DNA of 63,315 bases, the filler included, from Collodictyon triciliatum (lineage: Eukaryota), in the NCBI GenBank assembly GCA_043381765.1. It is 6 parts of 6 records of this genome, joined end to end, with 100 filler letters (N's around TTAATTAATTAA, not from the genome) between each part and the next. Parts side by side here need not be neighbours in the genome. Positions count along the whole stretch, not along the records: positions 1 to 23,862 come from JBHJMP010000807.1; 5 more parts are not named here. One strand, written 5' to 3'. The notes beneath the pieces were generated by a model that saw only the letters and a list, made by a program, of their open reading frames with translations, did no database searches and was not told the origin of the DNA. Of the stretch, positions 13,547 through 30,907 are shown piece by piece (the stretch's first letter is position 1; the number at the start of each line of letters is the position of its first letter). The position numbers and the translations under genes were made by a program.

Positions 13547-14877
13547 CGTAAAAACTTGAACCCTTTGCCAGTCGCCTCGTTGCTTGCTTGTCCTCGGTGG
13601 CGTATTTGTCTGTGAGCACAATGATCAAAACCACCCAACACAGCCTGATTGACTCGCACAGCTGCACTCCCCAGCTCATGGTTTGATAGATGAAAGAATT
13701 AAAAATCCAGATATATCCAACGGTTTCAATTCATTCATATATGGAATTTATCTTTATATCACAAACATAGGTATGTGTACCAGCAAATTCCGACACAAAT
13801 TATTCAAATTTTGCTAAATTTAATATACGTCATTTTATATATAGCCAGCCTCCAAGTATTTCTCGTAAGCAAGGCAGAAGGAACCGCGCGGGGGTTTAAG
13901 AAAGCTCTTCGTTTACAGTCTCAGTTCCTTGTCAGGTTGCTCTGAACGATGCATCCGTATTTTCTCTGCTACTACATCAAAATATGTGCACATGCAATTT
14001 ATCAGTCATGTCTATAATACACCTGATGTCCGAGTTTTTCTTGGTGTTATCGACCCGGAGATGGTATGGGTAGCACCGCTATTTTCGCGTGGCGTTACTT
14101 GGATTGGCCTCTCCTTAGGGTCTTATTCTTACTCATGTTATTATTTCCTTTCTTTATTTCTTTTTTTCCTTGCATTAGTACCGTCAATTAAAGTATGTGT
14201 ATGATTTTGCTTTATTTTTTCAACCTTGAGCAGTTAAGCGGTTCTCATAGCCAGGTTCTAGACTTCAGGATGTAATTGCAGTCAGATGTATCGAGGCATA
14301 GAATAACAAGTGTAGTATCTTCTTCATGTTATTTTTGGGTATTGTGCTTGAGCAGTTTGTACCTCTATGTCGCAAAACTTTTCCAACACGATTACAACTT
14401 TAGGATTAAGAAGTTCTCCAGTTAAATATATCGGAATAATCTAATCGGAATTCAATCGTGTTAGTACACGGGACAAAATCTAAAAAAATGATTTCATGTA
14501 GTTCGTCCCTTTTCCAGGTTTGGGGAATGTACATATATGTGTAATTGACATAAAACCCATCACAATCAACTTGCGGTCTTGACGTGGTCACGTATATACT
14601 TGCGCCGTTCTATTCCCCATTTCGCGTACGTTATAGACGACAAACCGCCAGTGGGTCTCACGCAGCGAACACACACTTATAACAAAAAACAAAAACACAA
14701 AACAAGAGCAGAAAGAAACAAAAAGCAAAACAAAACATAAACCAAGAGTAGAAAGAAACTAGAAACGAAAAACTTCGCAGACTTCGGTTCAACATAGCTC
14801 ACCAAAAGATCGATCTAGACACTCAGCACCCGACCCAAGGCCCGAACCAGTCAGACGACCGGCGGCCTCGCAACAGC

Positions 14878-17800
14878 ATGACTGCCCCAGTTTTTGATAG
14901 CGCAACCATCAGGCTGGGTAGCGAGCTTGGCAGAGGCGGCTTCGGGGCTGTCTTCAAGGCAACTCTGAATCTCCACACAACAGTTGCTGTAAAGGTGATC
15001 CAAGATGAAACTCAGCCCGTGGAAGAGATACAAAAGGAGGCCGATATCATGATTCGAATAACGCATCCACATATTGCGAAATGTTTTGGGATGTACCGAG
15101 ATGGAAAAGTGGTTGGGATGGTCATGGAATATGCAGATGCAGGGAGCCTGTCCAGAACCATCCATGCCAAACCTGGCGGGCTCTCCATTCCCGAAATCTG
15201 TATGTACGGCAGTCAAATCTCTTCTGGAATGGAGGCACTTTACGGTGTTTACAACATATCTCATCGCGATATCAAACCAGCAAATATTATTATGATGACT
15301 TTGTATGACCCCGAGAGTCATTCTCTTCGCCTGACTGCAAAAATCACAGACTTTGGGCTCTCAAAGATTAAAAGAGCAAGCGTAGATGTATCTCGCATGA
15401 GCAGTCGTAGTGGTGGCTTTCACGGAACTATGGTATACGCAGCTCCTGAATGCTTGGGTCTCGTTGGTGAGACGGGGGGTCATATGGGAGAAAAGAGTGA
15501 TGTGTACTCTTTAAGTCTTGTCTTATATGAAATGTGTTCAGGGGAAATACCCTTTGCTGGACTAGAGCTTACTAAATTTATCGCTGAGATGGCGAAAGGG
15601 AAGCGAATGCCTATCCCGGTCAATATGAGCAATGACCTTGCAGAAGTTGTTACTAGATCCTGGAAACAGGAGCCCTCACAGCGTCCATCGTTTGCCCAAG
15701 TTACAAAAGCCTTAAATCTGATGTCTGGTAATCTTTCGAAGGGACTGAACTCAACACCGGCCCCTGATGTTATTCGGGTTTTGGACCCGCCTCATGCTTC
15801 CAGTTCTATGAATTCATATGAGCAGAACGCTGTGTCGTCGCCAAAAAATGCAGTATCTCCACTAAATACGACCGAATCTACGCCTTCTCAAGGTCAGATG
15901 AGTCCGGGTCATGGAGGTGCTCGTCCTATCAATAAGGGACCTCATATCACAGGTGGTCCTTCTCCAGGAATACAAAACTCTGATGCAAATAGCAGATTGT
16001 CTGCTCATTCAGGCCCATTACCCTATCTACCTTACGCCTGGGGGCAGAATCTGAGTGCTCCATTACAAACACATAGCGACCCATCATATAAACAAACTAT
16101 TGGCAACGACCACGGAGACATTGACAACTACACCCATGAAGGTGTTGTCAAATCTTATCCTTTAGACTTGGAAGGGGTAATATTTTATTTTAAAAATAAA
16201 TTTAAATATGAGCCGAATAAAGGGAAAAATTCTTGGAAGATATGAAAATAAGTGTAATAATGTGGGCCAATTATGAAAAGGGTACACATAAATTTTTCTT
16301 TTCTCTTTATTGAACCAGAAACCAACAAACATTTTCCCAATCGGAAGTCAAGTGAAGGTGACCGATAATTATGGAACGTTTGGTGATGCTGCGAGTGGTC
16401 CTCTTCGACCAGGCATGTTGGGAACTGTGATTGCTCTGTCATCTGGACTGCACCCACGATACAGAGTTAGAGATCAAAATGGAGTTGAATGGTGGTATGA
16501 CTATGGGGCGCTTTCCCTCTTTACGGGGATGACAGAACGTATTCCTCACTTATTGGGCTCTCCATTACAAAAGACTCCCACTCATTTGATATCCCCGAGA
16601 GACCCTACTACAGTTACCAAGCCGCGAGGAAATGTGACACCTGAAAAAGCCCATGCTTGCTTGAAGGTTCGTCGAGGTCCAGATTGGAAGTGGGGGGACC
16701 AAGATGGAGGTGAAGGTGAAGAAGGTCTGTTGATAGAAGCTTCAGCGAAGGGATGGTGGTATGTTATTTGGGATTCAGGGAACTCTAATCATTATCGTGT
16801 TGGTGAAGGTGGATACTATGACCTTGAATTTGTTGACCCATCTGTACAGCCATCAAATAGCGACATTCCCATCGGTTTTTATGTAACCCTCTCACCAAGC
16901 TTCAAGGAATGCTCTGAAGCAATTAATGGGCCATTAAAATCAGGTGATGTTGGTGTTATGAAAGAAAATGACCAATCAAGTAAGCCTTACAAGGTGGAGA
17001 CTGCATCGGGGAAGATTTACTGGTACAAATCCCATGTCATACAACCATTTGATAGCTCATCCATTCCAGTGGGAGAGAAGGTGACCAAAGCCCTTGCTCG
17101 GTCTGGACTCAAAGTAAAGCGAGGTCCTGATTGGAAATGGGGTGATGCAGATGGTGGGAGCGATGCGTCTGGAGTCTTAATAGAATCCTCATCGCATGGT
17201 TACTGGAAGGTAAAATGGGAGACAAACGAAATTGGAACCTATCGAGTTGGAGCAGAAGGTGCATTTGACCTTAGGTTTGTGAAAATTGATAATTCTGTCG
17301 TTCAAGTGCCCAAGGTTGGAGGATATGTCAGGCTTTCAAACTGCTCATGCAGTGATGGCTCTCTGTCTGTGATGTCACCCCAGGATGTAGGACTTGTGGT
17401 TCAATATGACAGCCCTGCTAAATTATTCAAAGTTCGGGGACCATCAGGTAAAGAAGGAGCGTATGACATCTTCTGCCTTCTCACATGCGAAGAACCAATC
17501 ATCAATATTGGGTCTACCATCACAGCATTGAATGTGAAAGATGGATTGCGAGTTTGTAGAGGCCCAGACTGGAATTATGGAAACCAGGACGGAGGAAAGG
17601 GTAAAATCGGAACCGTAGAAGCATTATCTGGGCGAGAAGGATGGTGGAGTGTGCGTTGGGACAATGGATACATAGGCAAGTATCGTGTAGGTGCAGATTT
17701 GCGCTTTGACTTGGAATATGCAGACCAACGCTCTATTGCTCCTCCCATTTCTAAGCTAAATGTTGGTGATTATGTCCAATTAGTTGAGAACTATAGCGAT

Positions 17801-20800
17801 TTTGAAGATGTAGCAGAAGGGCCGATGAAACTTCACCAATTTGGATTAATTATCAATGTGGAGGAGTCAAAAAAGCCATACAAGGTCAAGGCTGAAAACG
17901 GAAAATCATGGTGGTATATGAGAGCACCCCTGATAAAATTAGAACATGCCAATCCAACTTCAATTGGGTCTCGGGTAAATGCATTCAACACCAAAGCTGG
18001 GCTTAGGGTTCGTCGTGGTCAAGGTTGGGCGTCTGGTAATCAAGACGGTGGAAAAGGTAATTCTGGGAAGCTTAAGAATGAAGCTCGAGCTGGTGTTTGG
18101 ACAGTTGAATGGGATAATGGAGATTCAGGGAACCATCGTGTAGGAGAAAATGATGAATACGAGCTTGAAATATCTGACGCCCCCTTGCCAGTCAAGGTAA
18201 TTTCACCACAGTCCATATCTAAAGGTAGCAAAGTTGTTCTTGCAATTGGATATGAAAGTCACGGGGATGCCAAAGATGGTCCATTATCGCCAGGAGTCGA
18301 GGGAACAGTAATTGCAGATGATGGTTCTGAAGTTCCATTCAAAGTAAGAGGTCCCAGTGGAAAAGAATGGTGGTATCGCAAGGAGGCATTGACCACGCCT
18401 GGAAGCTCAAATGTGGCTACTTCAGGAGGCAAGATTTCAGTTGGAAGCAAAGTTGTTCTTGCTATTGGATACGAAAGTCACGGAGATGCGAAGGGTGGTC
18501 CATTATCACCAGGAGTCGAAGGAACTGTAATTGCAGATGATGAGTCAAGCAAACCATACAGGGTAAGAGGTCCGAGTGGAAAAGAATGGTGGTATCACAA
18601 AGAAGCTCTCACTACTCCCGGAAGTTCAAATGCTGTGGCTACTTCAGGAGGCAAGATTTCAGTTGGAAGCAAAGTTGTCCTTGCCATCGGGTATAAGAGC
18701 CATGGAGATGCGAATGACGGTCCATTATCGCCAGGAGTCGAAGGAACTGTAATTGCTGACGATGGTTCAAGCAAACCATACAAGGTTGAAGACTATGAGG
18801 GGAAAGAATGGTGGTATCACAAAGAAGCTCTCACTACTCCAGGGAGCTCAAATGCTGCTACTTTGGAGGAAATCATCGCAATCGGAAGCAGAGTTGTTCT
18901 TGCCATCGGATATGAAAGCTATGGAGATGCAAGAGGCGGTCCATTATCACCAGGAGTCGAAGGAACTGTAACTGCTGTTGATGAATCAAGCAAACCATAT
19001 AAAGTTAAAGCGCCGAATGGAAAAGAATGGTGGTATCACAAGGAAGCTCTCACTACTCCTGTAAGTTTAAATGTGGCCGCTTCGGTTGAGACCATAGCTG
19101 TGGGAAGCAAAGTCGTCCTTGCAAATGGATATGAAAGCCATGGGGGTGCGGAAAACGGCCCGTTGTCACCAGGAGTCGAAGGAACTGTAATTGGTGTAGA
19201 TGGTTCGAGCAAACCATATAAAGTGGAAGCACCGAATGGAAAAGAATGGTGGTATCACAAGGAAGCACTGACCACTCCTGGAAGCTCAAATGTGGCTTCA
19301 ATAAGTTATGGAGGTCATAGTTCAGGTAAGGTGACCGAATTTAATGCTAAAGCGGGAGCAAAAGTACAGCGTGGTCCAGATTGGAAATGGAGTGACCAAG
19401 ATGGAGGAGTTGGTAGTGTGGGAACCTTGAAAAGACCTGATAGTCAGGGCTGGTGGAACGTTGAATGGAAAAAAGGCAACTCCAACAACTATCGCGTGGG
19501 TGCAGATGGCAAATATGACCTTGTTTACGCAAGCGTAGAATTACTGCCATCAAAATCACTTTCTATTGGAAGCAAAGTTGTTCTCGCAATCGAATATGAA
19601 AGGCATGGGAATGCCAAAGATGGTCCATTGTTACCCGGGGTCGAAGGAATAATTATAAGTGATGATGGGTCTGATACCCCATTCATGGTCGAAAGCCCAA
19701 GCGGAAAGGAATGGAATTATCGCAAAGAAGCACTGACCACTCCTGGAAGCTCAAATGCAGCTTCAAAAAACGTGAAGATTTCAGTCGGAAGCAAAGTTGT
19801 GCTTGCCATCGAATATAAGAGCCGTGGTGATGCGAAGGATGGTCCATTATCACCAGGAGTCGAGGGAACTGTAATTGCAGATGATGAGTCAAGCAAACCA
19901 TATAAAGTTAAAGCGCCAAGTGGAAAAGAATGGTGGTATCACAAAGAAGCTCTAACGACTCCAGGGAGCTCAAATGCCGCTCCTTCAGAAAGCGAAAATG
20001 TTGTTTCTGGTCGGGTAACTGAATCAAATGCCAGAGTGGGATTAAAGGTGCAGCGTGGTCCGGATTGGAGTTGGGGAGACCAAGATGGTGGAGTTGGTGG
20101 TATTGGTACTTTGACAGAAGGTTCATCCTCCAGAGGATGGTTTAGAGTTGACTGGAGTAATGGTAATTCGAACAACTATAGAGTTGGTGATGACGGCAAG
20201 TATGACCTTGCTTTTGTACCGCAAGGGGTATTGCCAACACCAATATCAGTTGGAAGCAAAGTTGTTCTTGCCAAAGGTTATAGAAAACACGGGGATGCCA
20301 AAGATGGTCCATTATCGCCAGGAGTCGAGGGAACGGTAACTGCAGATGATGGTTCTGGAGTTCCATTTAAAGTTCAAGCGCCAAGTGGAAAAGAATGGTG
20401 GTATCGCAAGGAGGCATTGACCACTCCTGGAAGCTCAAATGTGGCTACTTCAGGAGGCAAGATTTCAGTTGGAAGCAAAGTTGTGCTTGCCATCGGATAT
20501 GAAAGTCACGGAGATGCCAAAGATGGTCCATTATCACCAGGAGTCGAAGGAACCGTAGTTACCGACGATGGTTCAAGCAAGCCATACAAAGTTAAAGCGC
20601 CGAATGGAAAAGAATGGTGGTATCACAAAGAAGCGTTAATGTTGGTTGGAGGTCTGGGCGTGGAGCCTCCAAAGCATGGGCAAACTGTCACTGGTTCAAA
20701 CGCCAGAGTGGGATTAAAGGTGCAACGTGGTCCAGATTGGAAATGGGGAGACCAAGATGGAGGAGTTGGTAGTCTGGGAACGTTGAAAAGACCTGATAGT

Positions 20801-21007
20801 CAGGGCTGGTGGAACGTTGAATGGAAAAGAGGCAACTCCAACAACTATCGAGTGGGCGCAGATGGCAAATACGACCTTGTTTTTACCTCAAATTCAAGCA
20901 CCTTGGATTCAGACTCTAGCTCGAGCTCGAACTCGGACTCCAGTTCTGGTTCACCTGATATGCGTGATATGCTTGGGATGTTTGCACGACAAAACAGCTT
21001 TGAGTAA
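14878..21007 (+). CDS. TKL-type protein kinase fused to 7 MIB/HERC2 domains and 13 SH3-like repeats (~1995 aa, 2 exons)
   Basis: Exon 1 14878-16176 (GAAGGG|GTAATA) and exon 2 16319-21007 (AACCAG|AAACCA) join in phase 0 across a 142-nt AT-rich intron. Kinase motifs are intact: GRGGFG, VAVK, HRDIKPAN, DFGLSK, YAAPE, SDVYS. There are seven RGPDWxWGDQDGG...W...NxYRVG...YDL units and thirteen GSKVVL...GPLSPG.EGTV...PYKV...EWWY...AL-type units. Confidence 0.9.
18215..20885 (+). repeat. Coding tandem repeat array: ~220-nt SH3-like units interspersed with MIB/HERC2 units
   Basis: Nine highly similar copies containing GCAAAGTTGT..., CCAGGAGTCGAAGGAAC and AAAGAATGGTGGTATC. Example: 18368-18457 vs 20396-20485 differ at about one position. 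Confidence 0.95.
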
Positions 21008-22120
21008 AGGTAAGAATCTAGTTAGCTCAAAGTTTAATATTTACCATGCAATATGCTTAGTATTAACCACATAGAAACATATCTCAAGAGTTATAAAGAA
21101 ACCTATGCTGGATGAAGCCACCAAGTCAGGAACAAAGTAGAAGTCTCCACAGCGTCTCTGGCTTGAAAGAAAACGACGAATTAAAAGTCAACCGAAAAAT
21201 TAATAATTTAGATATTTGCTATGGTTTTTGCTTTTCTTGTGCTTTCTATTTAAAGTGATGCATTAAGTAGTCCAGGATGATTGCCGGTAGTTTCAGGGCT
21301 GAAAGAGATAAATGTATGTGCTTGTTTGATACAAAACCATGAGAGTGGTACCTGATTGCGTATGATGGGAGGAGGTGGTTGGCGATTGGACAATATCAAT
21401 TTTCTATATAAAAATCATGAGCGAATTTTTCTTTTTCTTTTTCTTTTTTTATCATTTCACAACACTATCCTTTTCAATAGTGATTAAAGGTAATACTCCA
21501 TCCCACAATCTTTTTTCTTCTATTACAAGCTTACAGCGCTTATATTCCACGCTGCTTGTATTTTTTTCGTGAGTACACTTCCTTTTCTTCCCCAAGTGAA
21601 AGGGTCGACAAAACTTTCTTAAGGCATGCCTTTGAGCGGTTTTCATTATTATTAGGGGCTGTCAAGTCGCGATACTCTTTCATCCCAAACATGCCCTCGT
21701 GCTCTCGAAGCAGCCGCCAAATAAAGATGAAGCGAGATACGCATTCTTTGACTTTCCCAGGTTCACCATCGACGAGGAAGGCACTGTGCGGCGCGAGTCA
21801 GGCATTTTTCAGAACCCAAGCCCTCGCGAGTTCCTATGACAATACTCCAGCCTGAAACATATAAACCATACACCCTTTTTCGAATACATTCCCACACATG
21901 ACAGGCCACAGTCACTAACTTGCAAATGAAGAGACGCAATGGCGACAGACAAATGCGCCATTTCTTTCGATCCCTCAAATTGCTTGCTCAAACGTCAATC
22001 AAAATCTAGAGAGCTGGTCACATCGCGACCATGTCAAAAGGCGATTGAGTCGTTGGGAGCAAAGAACGAAATAAGGAGACAAACAAACGATACAATAACG
22101 AGCAGGCAAACGCAAGGACC

Positions 22121-25019: not shown

Positions 25020-27129
25020 ATGATAGGATTGCTAGTCCCAAAGTCTGTGCTCAAGACGCTTTCTGTATGTTTACATTCTCAACCGAAGCCCTGCTCTTGC
25101 AATAGGGAATTCTCGCTTCAAAATCGAAAGGATGCCATATTCACACAAATACATATTTATATTATATATTACATATTATTTTTATAGCATGATGGCTTCG
25201 GCAACATCATTTCTATTTAATTACTATTCATAATGACACAATTATTATCTTCATTGTTTAACTGGGACTGATTTCATGGTATTCAAAACAACATTAGACA
25301 AGTATTACCTTGTCGAATGCTGCCCGCACATACCGCACTTCGTCCGAATTCAACGTTATTGACGGCTCCATTGTCGACGTGAAAGGGCCGGAATTTAAAG
25401 TATGATACAAATAAAACATCATGACCGACGAAGTGGCATTCTGACCTTTTTCTTCCAAGCTGTATCTTCACTTGTGCATCTTAAATTGCTTCATCTGAAT
25501 AGTCATATCCGTAATTACCATCATCTTTGGCACTGTTCAGTTTTTTAAATGCACATTTCACTAAATGCATAGTCGAGATGCACTCGTTAATGAGGTTCAC
25601 CAAATCCTTTATTTCTCAACGGTGTCATAGGAAAATGCTGCTGTGATGGATTCATTGATTGATGATCTTAATACAAAGGTGGCGCACATAGCAAAAGGTT
25701 TTTTTTTCTTTCAAGAATTTCCTAAGAGGAAGATGTGTTTTTTCTTCCGTAGCATTCATTCATATATGTATACATTCACTTTTTTTCTGACATTTTTATT
25801 TTCTCTTGTTAACAAGGCGGAGGTGCCAAGGCTATCCAGAAGCACAAAAGCCGAAACAAGATGCTTCCTCGTGAAAGAATTGAAAATATTATCGACCCGG
25901 GGTATGTCACTACATTAATATAGCAATATTATTTTCATGAATATAATAAATAGAATTTAATTTTTTTAAAAACAATCATATTTCTTCCTCTATTACCAAG
26001 AAAAAAAAAGATAAACAGAAGAGAGGTCAAAAGGCTCACAAGTTTACTCTAAAAACTGCCAAACAATTTCTGTAAAAGGGACCAATTGTCTCAAATCAAG
26101 CAAACCTCCTCCCAGTTGTTTTCTTACCTTTGACTAATAATTAGAACCCCTTTCCTTGAGCTTTCTCAACTAGCCGGATATCAGCTTTACGACGACAATG
26201 TTCCTTGTGGTGGAGTTGTCACGGGTATTGGGAGAATCCACGGGTGAAAATTCATAGCCATTCCTTTTTCCTCGATACATACATGCCTCAATTGACTTAC
26301 AACCTCGAAATCAGAATGAATATCACATTTACACATGCTGATATACATGATATGCCTCACCAGCCAAGAAACTGTCATCGTTGCAAACGATGCCACAGTC
26401 AAAGGAGGAACCTATTACCCAATCACGGTGAAGAAACATTTGCGTGCGCAAGAAATAGCCCTCCAAAACCGTCTTCCATGCCTATATCTAGGTCAGAACC
26501 TCTTTGTTTCTCTCATTTTCGGGAACATACTAGATTATATATAATACATATTACGTATACTTGCAGAGAGTTTGTGATTCAGGGTATAATGCCTCGTGCC
26601 TACAAAATATCAATCATATTATACAATTAGAAGCATCTTCTACAAAACTACCACAGTCACCTACAAATGCCAACTAAATTGTATAGTTGACTCTGGCGGT
26701 GCCCACTTACCCAGTCAAAAGGATGTCTTCCCTGACCGTGAGCACTTTGGTCGTATCTTTTACAACCAAGCAACAATGTCAGCCGCGAGAATTCCCCAAG
26801 TTGGTTATCTCGTTTCCCCCCACTCATGTTCACAGATTGCACAGTGATGTATCAATATTATTTTTGGTATATTTTCTTGAGCTGTGTTGTTGTTCAGTGT
26901 GTAGTTTTTATCTTTTTTTTTTTCAAATACATGAGGCATCATCGTATTCACTTCGTCCGCAATCTACACATTAACATATGTAGATTGCAGTTGTCATGGG
27001 TTCTTGCACAGCTGGAGGCGCTTATGTCCCAGCTATGGCTGATGAAAGTGTGATTGTCAAAAACAATGGAACTATCTTCCTGGGCGGGCCTCCTTTGGTA
27101 ACATATATTGAATAGCAATCACACACTTG

Positions 27130-27174
<45 letters not shown>

Positions 27175-29410
27175 TCTTTAACATACGTTGTGTTTAACAT
27201 TAAAAGAACATAATATGCCGGCTGGTTCTTGTTCATTACTCTTTGAATGTTATCTGTCCATTTCCTAACGGGAGACAACTTCCATCATCTTTCCCATCAA
27301 TTATCACCGTTTCCCCAATTCTCCAAATCCCCTCTTATGTTTGTTAGAGGAGTTATGTGTAATTTGCCATAATTTGTCATAGTTTATTTGTTAACTTAAT
27401 CTCAATATCTTTCATATGGCATTAGGTGAAAGCTGCTACAGGCGAGGTTGTAACTGCCGAGGAACTGGGAGGTGCGTACATGCATTGCACAAAATCTGGA
27501 GTCACAGACCATTTTGCCGAAGATGAGCACCACGCCTTTGCTATAACGCGCAGAATATTTGGAAATCTGAACATGGAAAAGAAACCAAATGTATATACGT
27601 ATAGCCAGGGCATCATTTTTTTAAAGGAAAATTATATAACGGGGACGAATCTTTGTTGGTTCATATCGCTTTGTACCCATCGATATTTATTTACTTTGGG
27701 TGGTCTGATGGATTCCTCGTCATTAGGTTACTATGACTACATCTGAGGAGCCGCTTTACTCACCTGATGAACTCCGTGGTATTATCCCAACGGACTTGAA
27801 GAAGCCATTTGACATCCGCCAAGTAATGCGCTCTTAGATTTCTTGATTCGTGAGATGGGGTACTGTTGCCGCTTTTTTTTTCTCCTTCCTGGTTTCTAAT
27901 TTAACTTTGTCAAAAGATTATAGCCCGTATTGTGGATGGAAGCCGATTCAACGAATTCAAAGAGATGTACGGAACGACATTGGTCACTGGTTTGTGAATA
28001 TGCTCAATTGAAAATGTGTTTAACATCTAATGGCGTTGTATCTAGCATTTTTTTATGTTCTTATTTATTTTGGTGTCTTGAGAAAAGAGTCCGACATAAT
28101 TATGTACATAAAAGATTGCATTTCTAGTAGTTCGTCTGATAGGCAGAGCTCATTTACCCATTCTCTGAACAGGATTCGCCCGCCTCTATGGATACCCCAT
28201 CGGTATCGTTGCAAACAACGGAATTCTGTTTTCTGAGTCAGCCTTGAAAGGAGCACACTTTATTGAACTTTGCTCACAGCGTGGTATCCCACTTCTTTTC
28301 CTTCAAAACATCACTGGATTTATGGTCGGAAAGGTACGTCCCCTTGGTACTTTTTCCAGTTTTTATTTATTTCTTTATTCACCTCTACACATTTTTTTCT
28401 CACAAGAGAAAGGAAGACAAGCATACGTGTATATTCCCGCATGTTACGATGTATGCTACTTTAACCCTCTAGCAAATCACCATCAACAGTCGTACGAGAA
28501 TGACGGAATCGCAAAGAACGGAGCCAAGCTAGTGACTGCTGTCTCCTGCGCAAACGTGCCAAAAATCACTGTTGTTGTTGGCGGAAGCTTTGGTGCAGGA
28601 AATTATGGAATGTGCGGACGTGCGTTTAGTCCTCGCTTTATGTACATGTGGCCAAACTCTCGCATTTCGGTGATGGGTGGGGAACAGGCTGCATCTGTGT
28701 TGAGTCAGGTCTATTTGTTGTTCTTTTAATTTCATTTCATTTACGCCTATTATTCTTCTGCATGTTTAGCTTAAAGCATCCTTCTTTTTTCTTTTTTTTT
28801 AATAATAAACGAATAGATAACCTAAAAAAACACAAAATAGATTACAAAATAGATTACAAAATAGATTACAAAATAGATTACAAAATAGATTACAAAATAG
28901 ATTACAAAATAGATTACAAAATAGATTACAAAATAGATTACAAAATAGATTACAAAATAGATTACAAAATAGATTACAAAATAGATTACAAAATAGATTA
29001 CAAAATAGATTACAAAATAGATTACCAAAAAGAAAACGTATGGTCTGCAAGGGTTACACAACAATCAACTAAATACTCAATAGGTGGAAAAGGCAAATAT
29101 CGAGGCCAGCGGCAAGACCTGGCCGACAGATGAGGAGGAGGCGTTCAAGAACAAGCTGCGCACAAAGTATGAAGAGGAAGGAAAGCCCTACTTCTCCTCC
29201 GCCCGCCTCTGGGATGATGGTGTTATTAACCCAGTGGATACGCGCAAGGTACAGCAATATATTCAAAGACATCACATTGGATTCTTTATTCACTTCTTTT
29301 CTATTAATTAAAAAAAACATCCTATCGTCGTTCAGATTGTCGGGTTGAGTCTGAGCGCCGCACTTAACAACCCCATCGAGAAAACGACATTTGGAGTGTT
29401 CCGCATGTAA
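25020..29410 (+). CDS. MCCC2: Methylcrotonoyl-CoA carboxylase beta subunit, mitochondrial; 15 exons
   Basis: Complete in-frame splicing from [15 protein letters not shown] to ...KTTFGVFRM*. Diagnostic motifs: [94 protein letters not shown]. Confidence 0.97.
28832..29023 (+). repeat. Intronic minisatellite (ACAAAATAGATT)x16
   Basis: Perfect 12-bp tandem repeat within MCCC2 intron 13. Confidence 0.95.
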
Positions 29411-29950: not shown

Positions 29951-30670
29951 TCACCCATGCCGATTCTGATGGTCGCTATGCGCACGCCTCTGAGCACTTT
30001 GTCTCTGGTGCGAATCGGACAGCGGGTGCGGGTCAGCCGCGTCTCCGGGCGGGCGGGACTGAGCGGGGCGATTGGGGCCGGAGAGAGCGGAGGGCGCGGT
30101 TGGGGATGAAGCCGGAGGCGGGAGGAGGGAAGGGGGATGCGGGAGGACCGGTTCGTGCTGGAAGGCGAGGAGGATTGCGTGGACGCGGTCGGGATTGAGG
30201 GCGAGGTTGAAGCGGAGGGAGGCGAGGAAGTCGATTTCGAGGAGATTGAAGGTGTGGATGGGGATGCCCGCCACGTGTGCGAAGGTGAGGTTGTTGTAGG
30301 TGAGGTCGTCGTAGTATTTGGAGACGGTGTTGAGGGCGACGGCAAAGAGCGGGCGGACGTTGTGGTTGGTCAGGACGGTGCGGCGGTGGCGCAGGAAGCG
30401 TTGGATGTAGAGGACGGTTGCGCACACGAGCGGGTCGGCGAGCAGCGCGTATTCCCGCACGGCCTGCAGCATCGCACACACGCTCCGCGCACACACCGTG
30501 TCGAAGGGCGTTGCGCTCGTCGCGTGGCGCACGCAGCAGCTCTGGAAGTAGCGCGCGAGTTGGCTGTGCAGCCCTGCAGACTCGGCCGAGGATGGCGCGT
30601 ATGTTTCCGGGGATGTTGTGTTGCGCGTGGAGGAGGGTGTCGTGCTCTCCTGCGTGTCTGGGGCGTCCAT
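29951..30670 (-). CDS. PHO80-like (P/U-type) cyclin, intronless, very GC-rich
   Basis: 239-aa ORF with LYIQRF...LTNHNVRPLFAVALNTVSKYYDDLTYNNLTFAHVAGIPIHTFNLLEIDFLASLRFNL, matching the PHO80/cyclin-U box (K..DD..Y.N..(F/Y)A.VGG....N.LE..FL..L.F.L). Confidence 0.88.
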   Translation of the reverse strand: MDAPDTQESTTPSSTRNTTSPETYAPSSAESAGLHSQLARYFQSCCVRHATSATPFDTVCARSVCAMLQAVREYALLADPLVCATVLYIQRFLRHRRTVLTNHNVRPLFAVALNTVSKYYDDLTYNNLTFAHVAGIPIHTFNLLEIDFLASLRFNLALNPDRVHAILLAFQHEPVLPHPPSLLPPPASSPTAPSALSGPNRPAQSRPPGDAADPHPLSDSHQRQSAQRRAHSDHQNRHG

Positions 30671-30907
30671 GCTGGGCCGGGGTTCGGCAAATGGCTTGCG
30701 TTTCTTTTGGCTTTTTTTTTTTTATATATTTTAATTCTTCCTTTCAATTTTGTGCAGGATGGTGGATATTTTATTTTATTTTATTATAGCATTATTAATC
30801 TACATAGTTGTTATTATTATTAACACTTGTTTTTGTTATTGCGCGTTTTTATAGCTAATACAGGTATACTGCTTTTTTTTTTGCTTTTTTTTTTTGGTTT
30901 TGGTTTT

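Follow-up and report, generated by a model that had tools for sequence, protein, structure and literature searches.

The stretch of DNA analysed here (hereafter the window, 63,315 nucleotides (nt), filler included) comes from Collodictyon triciliatum (GCA_043381765.1) and joins six parts of six records. Its first part, from record JBHJMP010000807.1, holds at 14878-21007 a plus-strand locus that appears to encode a protein kinase joined to a long array of the recognition domains found in the Mind bomb and HERC2 ubiquitin ligases. Two long open reading frames (ORFs) lie here in different frames, running from stop to stop at 14752-16245 (ORF1, 497 codons) and 16292-21007 (ORF2, 1571 codons), and a sequence-only reading of the window had proposed that one phase-0 GT-AG intron joins them into a protein of about 1995 amino acids. 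The features of the locus are given below, with the evidence in brackets, M standing for a MIB/HERC2 domain and S for a repeated unit of 62 amino acids.

14878-16176 (+): exon 1, 433 codons with the ATG, the kinase and most of the linker, GC content (GC) 0.47 (ORF, ATG, RNA-library contigs)
14911-15714 (+): protein kinase domain, residues 12-279 (Pfam, motifs)
15732-16176 (+): Ser/Pro/Gly/Asn-rich linker, about residues 286-433 (composition)
16177-16318 (+): proposed phase-0 intron, 142 nt, GTAATA...CAG, holding the stop at 16243-16245 (sequence, enumeration of site pairs, GC)
16319-21007 (+): exon 2, 1562 codons plus TAA, with the S/M array and a Ser-rich tail (ORF, RNA-library contigs)
16334-16519 (+): S1 (unit mapping, tblastn)
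16655-16846 (+): M1, MIB_HERC2 (Pfam, mapping, tblastn)
16862-17047 (+): S2 (unit mapping, tblastn)
17102-17293 (+): M2, MIB_HERC2 (Pfam, mapping, tblastn)
17306-17491 (+): S3, the most degenerate unit, without the GPL and WWY motifs (mapping; partial tblastn match at 17372-17485)
17540-17731 (+): M3, MIB_HERC2 (Pfam, mapping, tblastn)
17753-17938 (+): S4 (unit mapping, tblastn)
17996-18187 (+): M4, MIB_HERC2, with RGQGW in place of RGPDW (mapping, tblastn)
18212-19276 (+): S5-S9 in tandem with a period of 219 nt, namely S5 18212-18397, S6 18431-18616, S7 18653-18838, S8 18872-19057 and S9 19091-19276 (unit mapping, Tandem Repeats Finder)
19352-19543 (+): M5, MIB_HERC2 (Pfam, mapping, tblastn)
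19556-19960 (+): S10 19556-19741 and S11 19775-19960 (unit mapping, tblastn)
20036-20227 (+): M6, MIB_HERC2 (Pfam, mapping, tblastn)
20240-20644 (+): S12 20240-20425 and S13 20459-20644 (unit mapping, tblastn)
20708-20899 (+): M7, MIB_HERC2, 85% identical to M5 in nucleotides (mapping, tblastn)
20900-21004 (+): Ser/Asp-rich C-terminal tail (translation)
21010-21088 (+): intron of the 3' untranslated region (3'UTR), 79 nt, GT..AG (spliced out in contig 8 of public run X2)

The first Met codon of ORF1, ATG 14878, stands 11 residues ahead of the kinase domain, and the frame ends at an in-frame TGA (16243-16245), with only 46 nt from there to the point at which ORF2 opens. Joining 16176 to 16319 removes 142 nt in phase 0 and gives 433 + 1562 = 1995 residues, the donor being the GTAATA that follows 16176 and the acceptor a polypyrimidine tract and CAG that end at 16318. 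We enumerated the GT/AG pairs around the stop that keep a stop-free frame and obtained 16, among which 16176/16319 has the most consensus-like sites and is one of the few that keep S1 whole; other splice choices with the same acceptor change the protein by only 10-11 residues. The first Met codon in the frame of ORF2 occurs at 16415, 28 residues into S1. The GC of the proposed intron is 0.25, compared with about 0.46 for exons of the window and 0.22-0.38 for introns. For calibration we used the 11 introns inferred in a methylcrotonoyl-CoA carboxylase beta (MCCB) gene of the same window (25300-29410), where GT/AG ends were required by construction; these are 87-375 nt long with a GC of 0.22-0.38, and the proposed 142-nt intron falls within both ranges. 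Because its sites are consensus-like and in phase, the first ORF2 Met comes late, the gap is short and both length and GC are intron-like, we infer the exon join, and the fusion of kinase and array would follow from this sequence logic.

It is unlikely, in our judgement, that the locus instead holds two genes, that is, a 455-residue kinase ending at TGA 16243-16245 and a separate M/S protein with its own promoter or upstream non-coding exon. Retention of the proposed intron would give just such a complete kinase-only product of 455 residues with its stop, a kinase is absent from 151 of the 152 S-bearing proteins that we examined (see below), and no contig lies over the 16176/16319 junction. 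However, a second gene would have to open 46 nt past the stop of the first with its first Met only inside S1, and it would begin at a polypyrimidine-CAG acceptor that is in phase with the GTAATA donor across a segment of 0.25 GC; moreover, a kinase-first M/S protein is known elsewhere (P0003, described below).

Public sequencing runs carry only parts of the gene, at 0.05-0.12 of sampled words, and are mostly freshwater metagenomes. Contigs of X2, a run guessed to be RNA, align to 14897-15892 and 20594-21009 at 95-99% identity, and contigs of X7, a metatranscriptome, align to 15458-15760 with no differences and to 17594-17820 with 3 differences. The RNA check across 16176/16319 that the sequence-only reading had suggested has thereby placed both exons in RNA-library contigs, and no junction-spanning contig was found among them; of the proposed join itself the two ORFs, the sites and the phase hold up, and the splice has no bridging contig. 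One apparent bridge, record 2 of run X1, consists of pieces of 21-22 nt (14721-14741 and 16186-16207) and was discarded as a low-complexity chance match.

Contig 8 of X2 reaches 21009 and continues with AGTTATAAAG, a string that occurs once in the window, at 21089. Because the 3'UTR intron is spliced out in it, this contig is complementary DNA of a plus-strand transcript. The coding sequence ends with the TAA at 21005-21007, ahead of the spliced 3'UTR intron, and a downstream RING exon is therefore ruled out. The intron begins 2 nt past the stop codon of the kinase-array gene, which is an unusual place; an intron that near the stop should not trigger nonsense-mediated decay. Tail length is variable at the C terminus: at 20899-20920 the window has 20 letters and the related X2 contig 8 has 71. 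The X2 letters ahead of 20594 resemble, and may be, a template-switch oligo tail. A low-depth X2 contig (3.3) inserts an A behind 15842, within the stretch that codes for the linker, possibly through an error in the contig and possibly because the related organism carries a frame-shifting variant.

The encoded domains follow the order K-(S-M)x4-S5-M-S2-M-S2-M, where K is the kinase, so that 7 M and 13 S make up 20 modules; unit mapping reproduces exactly the layout first read from the sequence. Membership of the MIB_HERC2 family (PF06701) is indicated by a Pfam E value of 9.1e-107 and 349.4 bits (cut-off 33.5) over seven stretches. A tblastn search located all 13 S and 7 M within the gene and no further copy in the rest of the window. 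Spacers measure 4-8 residues from M to S and 16-45 from S to M, and Tandem Repeats Finder describes S5-S9 as 4.9 copies of a 219-nt period with 81% matches (18227-19297). Throughout the 1995-residue protein no Pfam match to RING, HECT, ZZ or ankyrin was found at E<=0.01, and hydropathy shows no transmembrane-like segment (the highest 19-residue Kyte-Doolittle mean is 1.44), both as the earlier reading had it; no CxxC motif occurs anywhere in the protein. Beyond the kinase and MIB_HERC2 models, Pfam returned no credible family.

Nine younger S units are 67-87% identical to one another at the DNA level, with a mean dN (nonsynonymous divergence) of 0.156, a mean dS (synonymous divergence) of 1.04 and a ratio of 0.15 over 36 pairs, and M5 and M7 differ by a dN of 0.13 and a dS of 0.33. 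Given this DNA divergence, a dS of about 1 and a dN/dS of 0.15, the repeat copies are old enough for reliable assembly and each is under purifying selection. These values bear on a further suggestion, namely that repeat collapse or expansion produced the gene, whether as an artefact of assembly or as a pseudogene in decay. Its grounds would be the 18 runs of N elsewhere in the window and the 219-nt tandem array of S5-S9; yet the gene itself contains no N, its 1571-codon frame is intact and independent runs hold matching pieces at 95-100% identity, and we consider such an origin very improbable.

The kinase domain in exon 1 matches PK_Tyr_Ser-Thr (PF07714) with E 2.4e-49 and 168.4 bits (cut-off 23.1), which outscores the match to Pkinase (PF00069; E 8.2e-46, 157 bits). 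Every catalytic motif is present (GRGGFG, VAVK, HRDIKPAN, DFG and GT..Y.APE), and the Pfam score together with the Gly-rich loop, Lys, HRD, DFG and APE elements places the domain, by sequence, in the eukaryotic protein kinase superfamily. The intact kinase claimed at the outset is thus borne out, and by motif rules we take HRDIKPAN and GT..Y.APE to denote an intact Ser/Thr-type catalytic core. In the PDB, the sequences nearest to it (E 1e-26 to 4e-30) belong partly to the Src family of tyrosine kinases and partly, in the case of CTR1 and MLK, to the TKL group, and the label 'TKL-like' appears reasonable. The linker is rich in Ser, Pro, Gly and Asn (21, 19, 15 and 12 of 153 residues, respectively), and no Pfam family matches the region of residues 275-433 at E<=10.

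The sequence-only reading had described S as an SH3-like beta module, and the models agree. AlphaFold2, given an alignment of the 13 units, predicts a small barrel of 4 strands with a predicted local distance difference test score (pLDDT) of 91.8. The best Foldseek matches to this model are YorP (E 2.2e-3), HERC2 (9l8y), the REP repeat of MIB1 (4tse), PsaE and CPH domains, and no Foldseek match was obtained at E<=0.001. VIA-align superposes S on HERC2 2638-2698 with Z 7.6 (61 residues aligned, rmsd 2.1) and on MIB1 REP with Z 7.3 and 7.1 (59-61 aligned). With a confident model and structural neighbours that are, among those listed, SH3-like barrels, S is predicted to adopt the SH3-like small beta-barrel fold.

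The family affiliation of S is a separate matter. SH3_15 (PF18346; gathering score 24 bits) has no match to the whole array at E<=0.01 or to three single S units at E<=10, so that of the HMM scan proposed earlier the MIB_HERC2 and PK_Tyr_Ser-Thr models returned the protein and SH3_15 did not, S falling below that model. An S profile searched against PDB sequences retrieved only the SH3 domain of Eps8L1, non-significantly (E 0.33-0.39). In contrast, when a profile of 313 S units was aligned by hhalign with one of 102 REP units of Mind bomb, the probability was 95.3% (E 2.2e-8, 58 of 62 columns), the REP profile being built only from proteins without an S match, with 56 of 158 units dropped (24 proteins were common to both sets); S against M gave 58%. 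In this alignment S is without the GHGGW-type loop of roughly 8 residues that REP possesses. The top ESM Atlas match for S is an SH3_15 cluster (0.89, 171 shared features), which we treat as a lead only. Because the Pfam model fails but hhalign reaches 95.3%, profile comparison points to S as a distant homologue of Mind bomb REP that forms a separate sister subfamily outside Pfam SH3_15. When 1.84 billion proteins were searched with the S profile, 833 representative proteins passed E<=0.001; 280 of these reach 1e-10 and 36 reach 1e-30.

How this protein relates to others was addressed by searching with the array and with the kinase. No close homologue turned up in the collections searched: the best array matches were two proteins of Kipferlia bialata (P0001 at 26% and P0002 at 33%); matches to the kinase query were about 30% identical; 17 metagenome loci had 26-30%; and blastp of the full protein against 304 collected proteins gave at most 65% identity, over single units. 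A kinase Pfam domain occurred in four of the 85 MIB_HERC2-bearing proteins from the array search (domains of P0003 and P0010 were re-checked with Pfam), which are as follows.

P0003: Pedinophyceae sp. YPF-701, 2501 residues; N-terminal kinase, M and S units, C-terminal RING (zf-C3HC4_3, E 8.3e-8)
P0010: two ZZ, three M, C-terminal kinase
P0018: Hyaloraphidium; two M, Ank, two kinases
P0074: Lytechinus; MIB2-like with a kinase

Since four of 85 such proteins, P0003 included, carry a kinase, the combination of kinase and MIB_HERC2 is rare, not unique. The architecture had been called unfamiliar from characterised proteins; its rarity stands and uniqueness does not, none of the four being characterised and KEG (below) being a characterised protein of related design. 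The limited literature collection that we searched yielded no relevant paper on a kinase with MIB/HERC2 architecture. The notion that MIB/HERC2 domains usually come in one or two copies needs qualifying, as protist proteins reach 10 with our own M profile (P0001).

M also occurs in 37 of the 152 S-bearing proteins examined, and a kinase in P0003 alone. Their S count goes no higher than 10, compared with 13 here, making this the largest S array among those examined. Two metagenome proteins of about 2000 residues, P0158 and P0159, are the strongest matches to the S family and have 10 S followed by one MIB_HERC2, with a long N-terminal region without a Pfam match; both are uncharacterised. A Pfam census was made of 43 of the 53 S-bearing proteins of at least 500 residues, the rest being omitted by size. 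It returned MIB_HERC2 in 19, SH3_15 in 9, HECT in 3, RING (zf-C3HC4_3) in 3, two each with U-box, ZZ, TIR and ANAPC10, and one each with Pkinase, PARP, Roc, UQ_con and Neuralized. Further carriers of the array have a caspase (P0005), an ADP-ribosyltransferase (P0045) or Roc-COR (P0058 and P0168). On these domain annotations the M/S array is a portable module, most often found on enzymes of the ubiquitin system; the kinase-only version is exceptional.

P0003 resembles the present protein in that its kinase is N-terminal and precedes an interleaved series of M and S, and differs from it in its terminal RING and in having 3 S and 7 M (own profiles); it is uncharacterised. The kinase of P0003 is split by long inserts, and phmmer did not retrieve it at E<=1e-5 when the window kinase was the query, so its fusion probably arose independently of the one described here. 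Two metagenome proteins show the array on other partners: P0170 (759 residues) has RING + S-M-S-M-S-M-S-M, the same S-M alternation with RING replacing the kinase, and P0160 (1234 residues) has 2 ZZ + S-M-S-M + 7 S, with a terminal S run as in the window and ZZ replacing the kinase.

Among characterised proteins the closest analogue, likened by architecture and not by sequence, is KEG (KEEP ON GOING) of Arabidopsis. KEG is described as RING-kinase-ankyrin-HERC2-like repeats, the repeats serving contacts with other proteins and perhaps dimerisation, so that both proteins would combine a kinase and a long series of HERC2/Mind-bomb-type repeats for protein interaction in one polypeptide (PMC3697954). 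KEG differs in its RING and ankyrin repeats, for both of which the window protein has no Pfam match, and in being a plant ubiquitin ligase (E3), whereas the window protein is that of a non-plant protist. The 12 repeats of KEG fall under SH3_15, and we know of no report of MIB_HERC2 domains alternating with them. The window protein accordingly shares the kinase and REP-like repeats of a KEG-type RING-kinase E3 and is without its RING and ankyrin.

A second point of reference is Mind bomb itself. In MIB1, JAG1/Delta tails are recognised at two short epitopes, the N-box and the C-box, by the MZM and REP modules, which in this way bring the substrate to the RING (PMC11887331); the titles of PDB entries 4xi6, 4xi7 and 4tse likewise point to binding of Notch-ligand epitopes. 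Both kinds of module recur in the window protein, as MIB/HERC2 domains and as SH3-like barrels related to REP. Unlike MIB1 and MIB2 it has no ZZ between its MIB domains, no ankyrin and no RING by Pfam and no CxxC, a kinase would serve as its catalytic output, and it has 7 + 13 modules versus 2 + 2; its S units moreover lie below Pfam SH3_15 and are without the GHGGW-type loop seen in REP. As RING, ZZ and ankyrin were tested for and are absent, the gene lies outside the MIB and KEG families.

The reading to which we give moderate confidence is that of a single two-exon gene for a soluble 1995-residue kinase whose array tethers the kinase to targets bearing peptide motifs. It would be a nuclear gene of a collodictyonid-like freshwater protist encoding a soluble Ser/Thr (TKL-like) kinase, in which a predicted disordered linker of roughly 150 residues flexibly joins the kinase to a beads-on-a-string array. 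By analogy with MIB1, the 20 modules would read short linear peptide motifs multivalently and with avidity, so that the kinase would be tethered either to its substrate(s) or to some target of repetitive or oligomeric build and recognition would end in phosphorylation; relatives carry such an array on an E3 domain instead. Because S/M arrays elsewhere occur mainly in ubiquitin-system proteins, the array would here stand on a kinase where relatives have an E3. An active kinase, modules that bind peptides and an array that tethers are all proposed, and that the array directs phosphorylation is likewise our inference.

Several results weigh against this reading. No contig from the four public runs aligned bridges 16176/16319; the junction is uncovered, and the runs are silent on it either way. 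No orthologue with a conserved fusion was found, the best array match being 26-33% identical. Single S units, of which three were tried, match no Pfam family at E<=10, and hhalign of the window's 13 S units alone against REP gives 73.9%. The Z scores for HERC2 and MIB1 are tied with those of unrelated SH3-like folds, namely Hpy99I (Z 7.7, 52 aligned), PsaE, KOW and Tudor, and fold scores of 7.1-7.7 may reflect only a common SH3-like arrangement. Finally, the model of an M-S pair has a pLDDT of 77.5 (below 50 in the spacer) and a predicted template modelling score of 0.45, with no defined M-S interface, and the modelled array therefore looks like beads on a string.

The same gene model is compatible with another role, in which the array of the fused protein would act in self-association, autoinhibition, localisation or docking to an E3 in trans, the last of which would couple phosphorylation to ubiquitination much as KEG does within one protein. 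The HERC2-like repeats of KEG have reported roles in protein interaction and perhaps in dimerisation (PMC3697954), S and M domains are mostly found in ubiquitin-system proteins, and nine of the S units share 68-89% identity with S6, which would suit repeated binding of one ligand or self-association. These observations fit substrate recruitment as well, the protein has no E3 domain and no E3 gene was recognised beside it among the 10 window ORFs covered, and to us this role seems rather doubtful.

More tentatively still than the tethered kinase itself, M and S together could be an old portable recognition cassette of protists that is swapped among effectors, here producing a cytosolic, multivalent sensor kinase for immune-like functions or stress surveillance rather than housekeeping, with S an undescribed family that is sister to Mind bomb REP. 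The effector contexts that we found for the array are RING, HECT, U-box, caspase, ADP-ribosyltransferase/PARP, TIR-Roc-COR and, rarely, a kinase. In such a sensor the 20 modules would recognise a short motif that recurs on its target, whether self or non-self, and phosphorylation would be the response. Domain shuffling of this kind is common in protists.

To our knowledge, recognition domains of the Mind bomb/HERC2 type have been described almost exclusively in ubiquitin ligases, where they bind the substrate. Should the fusion prove real, peptide-reading modules would have been re-used to direct phosphorylation, with the array placed on a kinase alone, and this in a lineage of deep-branching, poorly sampled eukaryotes. 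Furthermore, the unannotated SH3-like S family with its 833 representatives could improve the annotation of many protist and metagenome proteins.

Other features of the window include the multi-exon MCCB (carboxyltransferase) gene at 25300-29410 (+), whose coding sequence is divided by 11 inferred GT-AG introns into at least 12 blocks; one of its exons is identical to a EukProt Diphylleia rotans protein at 68 of 69 positions, and other mapped exon pairs range from 61/73 to 51/51. By this one gene, the window probably derives from that species or a near relative. On the minus strand, an ORF at 29951-30721 carries a PHO80-type Cyclin domain (PF08613, E 2.9e-16), and two adjacent leucine-rich repeat (LRR) ORFs at 52723-54219 (LRR_8, E 8.4e-29 and 3.4e-13) are probably exons of one LRR protein. 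A further minus-strand ORF at 57120-57770, with an N run inside, by eye resembles a class III nucleotidyl cyclase core, and no Pfam family matches it at E<=0.001. Between 8172 and 58598 the window contains 1574 N in 18 runs of 44, 100 or 434 bases, and the assembly is therefore a scaffolded draft; these runs often lie beside low-complexity AAG/GAA-type or poly-A tracts that translate to K/E-rich runs.

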